Shown piece by piece: positions 13,861 through 25,739 of a DNA stretch of 64,000 bases. The notes below the pieces were generated by a model. The model was not told where the DNA came from, did not search any database, and saw only the letters and a list, made by a program, of their open reading frames with translations. The position numbers and the translations under genes were made by a program. How positions within the stretch are numbered: position 1 is the first letter of the stretch; each line of letters begins with the position of its first letter. The stretch is from Lytechinus pictus (Eukaryota): contig NC_087251.1 in NCBI RefSeq assembly GCF_037042905.1, positions 806,001 to 870,000 on the forward strand, given 5' to 3'.

Positions 13861-14088
13861 CTGGTGTAATGGATCCATTTAGGAGACGCATCTCTTGATG
13901 ACACTCATCTAAGTTGTTAAACTGGAAGGGATTGATACAGGTTTGGATATCCTCACTGCAAGCACACTTTCCATTGACTAAGTTACAACCTGAGAAGGAT
14001 TTGATCTCACAATCCATGATGTAAATAGAATCCTCACTATCCTGAGAAGATTCTCCATATGACCCAATCGCATCAGGGTCTCTTTTCT
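13861..14088 (-). CDS. CRIM1: CRIM1-like coding exon 2
   Basis: Acceptor ttcctaatacag| and donor |GTAAGG; 228 nt, phase 1-1, in frame with exon 1. GCNLVNGKCACSEDIQTCINPFQF resembles the vertebrate CRIM1 segment GCNIINGKCEC..TCSNPFEF (recalled, not aligned by tool). No further exon was recognised in 1-13860. Confidence 0.88.
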
Positions 14089-14409
14089 CTGTATTAGGAA
14101 ACAAACATAAAAGGGCTCATTAATAAATGAGAAAAGGGAAACAAGACCAACTAATTTAGTTGTAACACTTCATCTTTGAAGCCAAATAGGTCTCATGATT
14201 CAAGGAATTTACAATATTTCTTGTTAATATCTAGGCCTAGGCCTCAGCAAAATAACAGCTCACAAGAATTTTCCAAAATCTGAATTCGTAAAATTGTTAT
14301 GATGTCCCCTATTCTATCTCTGACATGGCCACTATTGTTTCATAAACCAACCATTATCAAAATTTTATAAAGGTTAACCAAATAGAAGCATCTCTTCTGA
14401 AATATAATT

Positions 14410-14468
14410 TGCCTCCGACGAAGATTCTGCTAGGATCGAAAGCTTAGGCCCCTTTTTTACTTTCTTTT
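14410..14468 (+). ncRNA. Minimal hammerhead-ribozyme-like motif (Penelope-type) as a 59-bp insertion
   Basis: GCCT-CCGACGA-A-GATTCT/gct/AGGATC-GAAA-GCTT-AGGC, flanked by the 12-bp direct repeat TGAAATATAATT (14398-14409, 14469-14480). Confidence 0.6.
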
Positions 14469-14543
14469 TGAAATATAATTAAGCGCATTGTTGACATGAG
14501 ATGTGATTACCCTTGCACCCTGGATGCTTATGCTTGTGTGCTA

Positions 14544-15628
14544 CAGTTAGACCGCAGGTCCCTAGCCTAATGCATGAGCAAAAAGGCCAGATTCATCCAA
14601 ATCATCTCGTGGCTGAATCATCCTTCTTGCAAAATCTCGTGATTCTTGAGACTTTCTTTCTCTAAGAATTTACCTGTTTTAACCTCAAGTTAAATGAAAT
14701 ATTATTGCACCATCAGATAGAGTAAATGTTACTCTTTCATATTGGTAATTTATTTTGTATACAATATTTTGATAAATAAGTACATTTCTGGCCTGAAAAT
14801 GTGCCTCAAAACTGAATTTTCTTCCTCTGTTTTCTTTTGCAAATTGTGCGAAACTTTTTATTTTGAGCCTCAATGATATCTTTATCACCATAAAGCTGAA
14901 CTTCTGTACTTTCTCACAATGCCACTCTTGATATGCGGCACCTTTTAATCGGGTCAAGATCACACTTTTCCCACCAAGGTAAAAGACAAGATTTCTGAAA
15001 TTTTGTACTTGCATGAAATCCAGAGTTCTGATTGGCTGGATAAGGTTCACAGAACAACAGGCGCGGGGTATTTGAGATTACCACATGGGAAGTGTGACCT
15101 TCCCATGAACCCAGGCACTGGAACCGTTGGAATTCGCCAGTGTGTGGTCTCTTTGACCAATCAGAGTGCAGTATTCTTGTTTTCAAGCTGCTTTATGTAC
15201 TTGGCCAATGAAAAGTGTGATCTTGACCCGATTAAACCAATTCTTATTTTGAAACCTATACCATTTTAAAGCATACATATTCAGCTTTATCATGATCCAA
15301 AAATCATTTGGGCTCAAACAAAAATAAAGTGTGAAAATAGCAGCTTTTGTCAGGTGAAAATAATTATTTTGTAGCATATTTTATATCAAAATTTTAACCT
15401 ATATTACAAAATCTTTGAATAAATTCAAACACATGACCTGAAAGAATGATTCTTCTTCTTTACAATGATACCAAATTCATGAAATTCGATGCACAATTAG
15501 AGCAGCAATGACCGAATGAAAAGAGGTGTTTTGGTCCGCATCAAGCTCATTAAATATACAAAACATCTCAAGTCATGAATATCACTTGGATGAAAGAAGC
15601 CACTTTCTTGCGACCTGCCGTCTGACTG
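14544..15628. mobile_element. Non-autonomous DNA transposon with CAG..CTG termini and 4-bp TSD (superfamily unassigned)
   Basis: TIR CAGTTAGACCGCAGGTC / GACCTGCCGTCTGACTG; GCTA on both flanks; perfect internal 27-bp IR at 14944-14970 / 15210-15236. Confidence 0.65.
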
Positions 15629-23755: not shown

Positions 23756-25116
23756 TATGAATGTGATATGTTATTTCCCAAAATGACATTTTCTATTAAA
23801 AAAATGAAAGTGATTTTATTTGTGCAGGGGATACCGGTATATTAAGAGACACATCATTTCTTCCCTCCCCCCCCCCCCCCTTGTAAAAGAAATATAGTTT
23901 TCTTAATCACATCCCATTAAAAGAGTTAAACTTATGAAATAAATACTGAACATACATGTACGCTCGTCTGTGACATCAAACATTAATTTTCATAACATTA
24001 CCACTTATTGCTTTCCATGACTTGATTAAAAGTTATTTTAATTGAAAGCCACACTTAATTGTTACTGATCCAGATTTTTATATCATCCAAAGTTCATTAA
24101 ACTTGACAAAAACATTTCATTTGAGATTTTAAACTCATGTCATGTAGGCCTGAAGAAAACAAATCCCTAACTCTGTTATTCTACAAAAAAAATTTATTTA
24201 AACTTCACCACTATTTTCGCTCTGTTTCATGCTTTTATTAAAACCACCTTATCGTCAGGTTTAACTTCCACTATAATGCAGGTCGCAGCAATTCTCTGTC
24301 AAATTATTTTAAAGAAGTTGAAAAAATAAGGTTGAAAACAATCAAAGTTTTAATGTTCAATATAGGTCTAAAGACTCAACTTTTTATTCACTTGATTAGA
24401 GCAACTTTATGAAATAACAAATGCAATGAACTCTGATTGGTATATGATTGGAGTTTACTGCAATAAAAACTATCAAAATACAATCACAAGCAGTCCAAAG
24501 ACTGAAATATGTGACTGTTTACAAAATAGAGTCATAATAAAAATATGAAGAAAACATTACAAGTAAATATTCAAATACACCAATTCATACATGTACAAAT
24601 GAAAAAAAAAGGATCATAAATACATAAACTGAAGGAACTGGAAATGAGACCCAAAGAGAAAAAGGAAATTGGGGATTGGGGGGCAAAACTGTCCAATAAC
24701 AAGAGCCCCAAAATCAATGTAAAGGAACCCAAAACCACACACATATCCTAAATCTCAGAGGGTCTCAGTCCTGTTTACAGTTATGTACATGCAGAGGGGC
24801 AAATAAAGTAGACAAATGGAAAGAAAGATATAGGATGAAAGAGAGCAAGTGGATGAGAGCCAGAAATTAGTTAAAATAAAAAGGAAGACAAAAGATGAGA
24901 AGAGAAATAGAGGCAACCTTCAGAAAAGAAAACTAATCATAAAATACAAGATATTTAGCAATGATAACTAAAGAAGGGGGAATATATTAAACAATGCATT
25001 TACATAGCAACCGGAACAGGCACAAAAAGGGATAATGGAGATCGAGATAGAAGCTCCCATTTTAACATTCTCATGATGTGGTGATGTTTTACTAAAAACA
25101 AAAATAATTTACTAAC

Positions 25117-25387
25117 CTCGACATAATCCATGTGCATCAGGATTCAACGAATCTCCGACTGCAACAATAAGTTCACATACAAATCCATTATCACACTGCC
25201 CATACTTTTTAAATCGTCCTCCACAAGATTGCCCATCAAGTTTGGCACACTCCTTGCAACATTGGCAAACATCTTCAACAACGCCACCTTGACAAGACAG
25301 TGTCGGGCACTTCTCCCGTTCGCAGGTGCCGCACGACAGGGCAGCTCCAGTTGCTACCAGAGAAAGAAATAACACCAAGAACTTCAT
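25117..25387 (-). CDS. CRIM1: CRIM1-like (cysteine-rich motor neuron 1) coding exon 1: signal peptide plus IGFBP N-terminal domain
   Basis: ATG at 25387 in GCCAAGATG context. MKFLVLFLSLVATGAA is a hydrophobic signal, followed by a 12-Cys IGFBP domain (CQCCKECA...CGG...GQCD...C). Phase-1 donor G|GTTAGT at 25116. Confidence 0.88.
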
Positions 25388-25739
25388 CTTGGCATGTAAT
25401 GGTTCATCTGAAATTTGTTGCAAAATACAAGAATAGGCCGTATATAAAATTATCCAAATTGATTCCACGGGAGTAGGCCTTCAACACGGATATCCAATAA
25501 GTACACTACAGTAGATTAAATTATCTTCCTCTCACTCTCTATCAACTCAATCTTCCAGAGATCCTGATCGCATCATCATCAAGAACCTCTTCATCCAATT
25601 GATGCATTTTGCGACTCTTGCCTCCGTGCTACAAGATAACGTTAGTGCTCCTCCTGAGAGGTCCAACCTCCACTCTCGATTTTTATCTTAGCTGGGTGGC
25701 AGTCCTAGACCAGCGTCGCGTTTTCTTTGGATAACAGTC

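Follow-up and report, generated by a model that had tools for sequence, protein, structure and literature searches.

Insertion site and host gene

The locus raises the question of how a 59 bp insert made up of a hammerhead motif and a short tail came to lie beside an exon of the opposite strand, and whether cleavage by the motif had any part in its origin. It was examined within a window of 64,000 nucleotides from Lytechinus pictus, to which all coordinates refer (Table 1). Direct reading placed the insert between two copies of TGAAATATAATT. The perfect 12 bp target-site duplication (TSD) proposed in the first-pass annotation was borne out by these letters and by an empty site in a related organism, B, whose contigs join 14397 to 14469 with 71 nt skipped and 12 letters ambiguous. 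Three DNA runs supplied these contigs, two of them (X9 and X11) from a single sample of organism B and the third (X12) from another study, and the Penelope-like family described below is present elsewhere in that organism at high depth. It is the empty site that proves the TSD, since 12-mer repeats at such spacing are not rare by themselves (80 positions within the window). The last TT of the left copy also matches the TTTT of the element, giving microhomology at the 5′ junction, and in alignment to a full-length copy the element match begins at 14408.

The insert lies 321 bp from the acceptor of the host exon at 14089, in agreement with the distance of about 320 bp first given, and contains the three CpGs that had been remarked on in CpG-poor surroundings (observed/expected ratio 0.35 locally and 0.55 for the window). 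We tentatively take the host gene to be CRIM1 and the exon to be its exon 2. A minus-strand ORF with an IGFBP domain at 25115–25480, upstream of the host exon on the same strand, fits a CRIM1-like host gene; an atlas search with the host exon returned no usable match. This ORF opens with what resembles a signal peptide and carries a complete IGFBP domain (E 5.9e-8); of the host gene's coding exons it is probably the first. As the motif lies antisense to the host gene, the insert cannot fold as a hammerhead on the host pre-mRNA, and cleavage of that pre-mRNA was ruled out. The copy in the window is most likely an inert passenger.

An abundant repeat of ~1.1 kb (14545–15627) starts 65 bp after the TSD. 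It is 95 % identical to part of one of the retrieved loci (L030), is very deep in all runs examined and contains internal inverted repeats, including a perfect 27 nt pair (14944–14970 and 15210–15236). It is probably a non-autonomous DNA element, such as a MITE.

Table 1. Positions of the insert, its hammerhead parts and the flanking features in the window
Feature	Position	Strand	Basis or remark
Host exon, Cys-rich, putatively CRIM1-like	13861..14088	-	Run X2 contig covers 13861–14090
Left TSD copy, 12 bp	14398..14409	+	Direct reading; empty site in related organism
Stub of Penelope-like element, hammerhead and short tail	14410..14465	+	100 % over query 11–68 to many genomic copies; matches both end repeats of full-length copy
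Minimal hammerhead motif of type I, with 4 bp in helix I, 6 bp in helix II and palindromic AGCU as helix III	14411..14449	+	Sequence, fold, paired changes across families; putative ribozyme
Helix I, 5′ strand GCCT	14411..14414		
Core CCGACGA, U4C at 14416	14415..14421	+	Sequence; copy counts
Extra A directly after core	14422		
Helix II, 5′ strand GATTCT	14423..14428		One G-U pair in helix II
Helix II, 3′ strand AGGATC	14432..14437		
GAAA	14438..14441		
AGCT	14441..14444		
Predicted cleavage site, after CUU (after 14445)	14445..14446	+	Not an insertion end-point
Helix I, 3′ strand AGGC	14446..14449		
Element-templated short tail, to first 3′-end cluster, ~20 nt beyond predicted cut	14450..14465	+	Sister copies
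Three extra T absent from element	14466..14468	+	Comparison with element
Right TSD copy	14469..14480	+	Direct reading; empty site in related organism

The parent element

The insert was used to search its own genome. Among 157 candidates, 40 were scored and gave 43 matches, mostly 100 % identical over 58 bp, and a 19-mer from the motif had 1,678 exact copies in the genome against none for the control. Copies reach upstream to variable lengths, through a 3′ UTR of ~0.9 kb and into an ORF encoding a GIY-YIG domain. In a search with the GIY-YIG peptide, the best 150 of 899 candidates were 97–100 % identical, several with open frames of ~909 codons. Twenty loci were retrieved from the peptide matches, picked mostly for long frames; all 20 carry the motif downstream, ~0.9–1.9 kb past the ORF, and seven also carry it before the ORF. 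The insert is thus the end stub of a young autonomous Penelope-like element (PLE) of ~4 kb with ~1,700 copies. The earlier reading as a young Penelope-type product with a minimal hammerhead, antisense to the host gene, was upheld.

The element protein has 907 aa in a single ORF, with a reverse transcriptase (RVT_1, E 8.9e-9) plus, at the C terminus, a GIY-YIG domain, which scored below the cut-off in the full protein (E 0.0014) and above it in a fragment (E 8.9e-5). Other features of the protein are a linker of the form CX4CxxC, a DKG motif and, inside the GIY-YIG motif, two Cys. The linker, read as CTSNRCIIC in the translation before GIY-YIG, falls under the CX2-5CxxC form common to Neptune and Nematis (10.1101/2021.04.23.441226). 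The element is putatively of the Neptune/Nematis type, as assigned by protein motifs and not by a tree. Among the 120 homologs listed, the most identical named ones were sea-urchin proteins, at 83–88 % identity over parts of the protein. None of the 120 was a reference labelled by clade.

The organization of the copies was that of an endonuclease-bearing (EN+) PLE: the RT/GIY-YIG ORF is linked to the motif, pseudo-LTRs occur as partial tandems and inverted 5′-truncated copies, an optional tail is found at one end, and the TSD varies, mostly 9–15 bp where found. Head-to-head inverted pairs are common, usually with the long tail on one arm only. In the available part of the Neptune/Nematis account (10.1101/2021.04.23.441226) the same order of a single ORF with RT and then C-terminal GIY-YIG, the DKG motif, the CX4CxxC linker, the two Cys in GIY-YIG, partial tandems, inverted pairs and a tail at one end are described. 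Unlike the targets reported there, those of the present family are AT-rich with 9–15 bp TSDs and mostly not (TA)n microsatellites.

Several features of individual loci were also recorded. The end repeats share a private long-tail variant in L051 and L057 and differ in L061, which bears on pseudo-LTR copying. In L065, L098 and L132 the 5′ strand of helix I and the core are deleted, apparently between short T-G-C repeats, with the rest of the element retained. In the 5′ UTR of one copy (L051:3700-4030) there is a tandem duplication of ~140–160 bp whose pyrimidine tracts end in AG and may represent splice acceptors present in duplicate. A spliceosomal intron retained in the 5′ region is among the traits of EN+ PLEs; over the 5′ region of a full-length copy, contigs of four runs, in which variants are dropped, showed no GT..AG joint. 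L026 and L027 (G000:C3, ~5.7 kb apart), and likewise L030 and L033, are near-identical including their flanks and represent local segmental duplications, so that some family copies are not independent insertions.

The hammerhead motif and its core

Direct reading confirmed the type-I hammerhead parts in the order first described. The pairing features of minimal hammerheads (min-HHRs) are present, namely helices I and II, an extra base after A9, the G10.1-C11.1 pair and a palindromic helix III. The minimum-energy fold includes helices I and II; the folding stability of 14410–14452 was no better than that of shuffled sequences (z -0.5), and an Rfam scan gave no hammerhead family at E<=10. When helices I and II were compared across hammerhead families, 49 of 56 cells paired and five of eight pairs changed on both sides, in a small set of seven sequences from about five families picked by core pattern. 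The first-pass annotation had suggested looking for stem covariation among copies; within the Penelope-like family, which is too young, the changes were scattered single substitutions.

Other min-HHR families in the same genome have a canonical CUGA core (L230, L235, L252, L257-L266), and many of these end in (TA)n. Two of them, L263 and L264, apparently also begin just upstream of helix I.

In place of the canonical CUGANGA, the core of the insert is the variant CCGACGA. The U-to-C change had been correctly read, although it is not peculiar to this copy: position 4 was C in all 62 intact copies sampled. Genome-wide, 25 matches had another base at this position, of which 20 had T, the change expected from CpG decay. 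A hand count of the first 100 of 1,902 relaxed-pattern matches assigned 83 to this family with CCGA, two to this family with CTGA, and 15 to other families, all with CTGA. U4C is a nearly fixed, family-wide trait, and the other hammerhead families of the genome keep CUGA.

In the sections of Cervera & De la Pena 2014 available (PMC4209133), the min-HHRs of metazoan PLE pseudo-LTRs are likewise of type I, with a 4 bp helix I, a long helix II with G10.1-C11.1, an extra nucleotide between 9 and 10.1, and a palindromic 15.2-16.2. The core variant named there is U3-A8, whereas nearly all copies here have U4C. Most min-HHR copies are described as solitary remains of truncated PLEs, as they are here, and the present family is homogeneous as in the D. 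virilis case (PMC4209133). Solitary min-HHRs from truncated PLEs are already known.

3′ ends and the predicted cleavage site

The ends of the copies were recorded for the first 70 listed on contig C1, which were consecutive and unselected. The 3′ ends fell into two clusters, ~20 and ~80 nt beyond the predicted cut (52 short, 17 long and one continuing). The ‘pyrimidine tail’ of the first-pass annotation exists, and has two parts: a stretch templated by the element up to the first 3′ end, and three extra T, for which slippage or untemplated addition is inferred. CTAAT near the short 3′ end was considered as a branch point and dropped, as many full-length copies have ATAAT.

A base other than A followed the predicted cut in only 14 copies, about two of which resemble true ends near the cut. 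Eight long-tail copies had a base other than T before it, and two of these start there. These searches required exact matches, and they overlook true ends where the next base is A or the preceding one T. The ends of the copies avoid the predicted cut site, and the insert spans it intact. With the ends off the cut, nothing shows that self-cleavage, dimeric or other, made the insert.

In one alternative, close to the first-pass annotation, self-cleavage of a hammerhead dimer would set free a unit of retrozyme type, perhaps circularized, which would then be inserted. The motif has the make-up described for min-HHRs, a circular-RNA model has been put forward (PMC4209133), and a dimer co-fold is possible at -27.0 kcal/mol, a value that has no control. 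Animal non-LTR retrozymes are similarly non-coding, of hammerhead type I and related to PLEs (10.64898/2026.07.22.740005; PMC7229834). They are tandem units (10.64898/2026.07.22.740005), whereas the insert is a single stub of the end of an autonomous element; tandem hammerhead units without an ORF, or a free-standing family, do not describe sister copies that pass gradually into an element with an ORF. In the loci examined the unit formed no tandem arrays, except for one short tandem (L147). U4C reduces hammerhead activity in vitro, yet leaves enough for a viroid in vivo (PMC3088659), and catalytic mutants left insertion by Poseidon in vitro unimpaired (PMC11167929). Together with the intact cut site, these observations make release by self-cleavage extremely unlikely.

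In Poseidon, from Anolis carolinensis (Frangieh et al. 2024, PMC11167929), 3′ ends likewise fall at two points downstream of the hammerhead, separated by an optional tail; the targets are AT-rich, and no ends lie at the cut site. In vitro, two internal start sites of reverse transcription, AT-rich nicking and an uncleaved RNA substrate were reported (PMC11167929). The two systems differ in the tail (~60 nt here and 30–40 in Poseidon), in the position of the hammerhead (~550–600 nt upstream of the ORF here, overlapping the ORF start in Poseidon) and in the CX2-5CxxC linker, which is found here, unlike in Poseidon (PMC11167929).

5′ ends and the extra G

Of the 70 consecutive copies, 21 have their 5′ ends just upstream of helix I, 24–32 nt before the search pattern (a 9 nt bin). 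The density of 5′ ends there was 0.044 per nt, compared with ~0.003 in the vicinity (p 8e-14), and none fell at 32 to 38. The pile-up has a sharp upstream edge at GTCATTTT, and its ends spread over ~7 nt. Such stubs make up ~30 % of the sampled copies. Where the base preceding GTCATTTT was not the T of the element, it was G in 72, A in 20 and C in eight (first 100 of 144, counted by hand); a control three bases further in gave G 14, A 51 and T 35 (first 100 of 104, also by hand). The excess of G over A relative to the control was strong (p 1.6e-12), in counts that include both arms of inverted pairs and are not all independent events. A subfamily with G replacing T was rejected, as none of 30 inspected loci continues into element sequence before GTCATTTT.

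An extra G of this kind is established for other retroelements as the reverse-transcribed cap. The junctions suggest that a capped RNA probably starts at GTCATTTT, 8 nt before helix I, and that reverse transcription ran off there. L051, L058 and L066 are among the copies that begin at this point and continue into the 5′ UTR, and some copies bearing the ORF begin there too. Against a capped run-off, 41 of the 70 copies extend through the putative start into upstream sequence, and would need a template jump or a read-through RNA. The copy in the window itself is without the extra G and ends ~5–7 nt short of the start of GTCATTTT; in at least three of 20 G cases inspected, the G doubles as the last base of the TSD; and short inserts would be expected from ordinary 5′ truncation too. 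A strong pause, or a base added without template where the end had no cap, could also account for the G.

Ordinary 5′ truncation would require no RNA start: the insert would come from truncated copying of a long RNA at its 3′ end, with reverse transcription stalling past the hammerhead fold or a U-tract and the cDNA joined by T microhomology. Such truncation is typical of PLEs (10.1101/2021.04.23.441226), and the T-microhomology junction of the window copy, its lack of the G and the ~7 nt spread of ends agree with it. The sharp edge at GTCATTTT, the excess of a non-element G exactly there and the ORF-bearing copies that begin at the same point argue against it, and we consider this explanation unlikely.

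TCATTT and GGATC near GTCATTTT resemble the Inr and DPE consensus sequences, with GGATC at +28 to +32 from the A of GTCATTTT. This spacing suits that A and not the G marked by the junctions, so the likeness lends weak support to a promoter. An internal Inr/DPE promoter is reported for D. virilis Penelope (PMC2377424) and an Inr-like sequence for rotifer pLTRs (PMC3846280). Stubs that start at GTCATTTT retain both elements, and given their share of the sample they might form a self-propagating non-autonomous micro-family, transcribed from the internal promoter into flanking DNA and recopied by the element protein. This is improbable, more so than simple truncation: the DPE spacing counts against it here as well, the T6-ACT tail variant of the insert is also found in ORF-bearing copies (L016, L021, L100), and an informal look revealed no stub-only lineage.

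Proposed origin of the insert

We consider it likely that reverse transcription began within an RNA that was uncleaved and probably capped, at a point ~20 nt beyond the hammerhead, and that it ran off near the 5′ end. The element protein would nick an AT-rich target by its GIY-YIG domain and begin reverse transcription internally on the uncleaved RNA, both steps by analogy to Poseidon (PMC11167929). The cDNA would run to near the 5′ end just upstream of helix I, where the junctions point to a cap, and would be joined via T microhomology, with the 12 bp TSD as the outcome of the insertion.

The portion of PMC11167929 available mentions no defined 5′ start marked by an extra G for Poseidon. A literature search found neither a cap-marked class of stubs nor a PLE family with fixed U4C; its coverage was partial, and supplements may list such variants.

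On its own the insert is unremarkable. Its family is of use because the sources available leave open how Penelope transposition proceeds in its late steps and what the hammerhead contributes (PMC11167929; 10.1101/2021.04.23.441226), and a young family of ~1,700 near-identical copies records junctions in bulk. These junctions suggest that the template is uncleaved and that its 5′ end, probably capped, lies at a defined position 8 nt before helix I, in a family that spreads well with a core change that lowers hammerhead activity. A broader scheme is possible, although we hold it tentatively and think it rather doubtful: about a third of the family insertions may be ‘strong-stop-like’ cDNAs, primed internally just beyond the hammerhead at the 5′ end of a capped RNA and copied as far as the cap, which would normally then jump to the matching 3′ repeat as in retroviral first-strand transfer. 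The U4C hammerhead would be retained chiefly as a promoter or as a fold that binds protein, and not as a cutter. Such a strand jump, if true, would account for the pseudo-LTRs, tails and partial tandems of the family.
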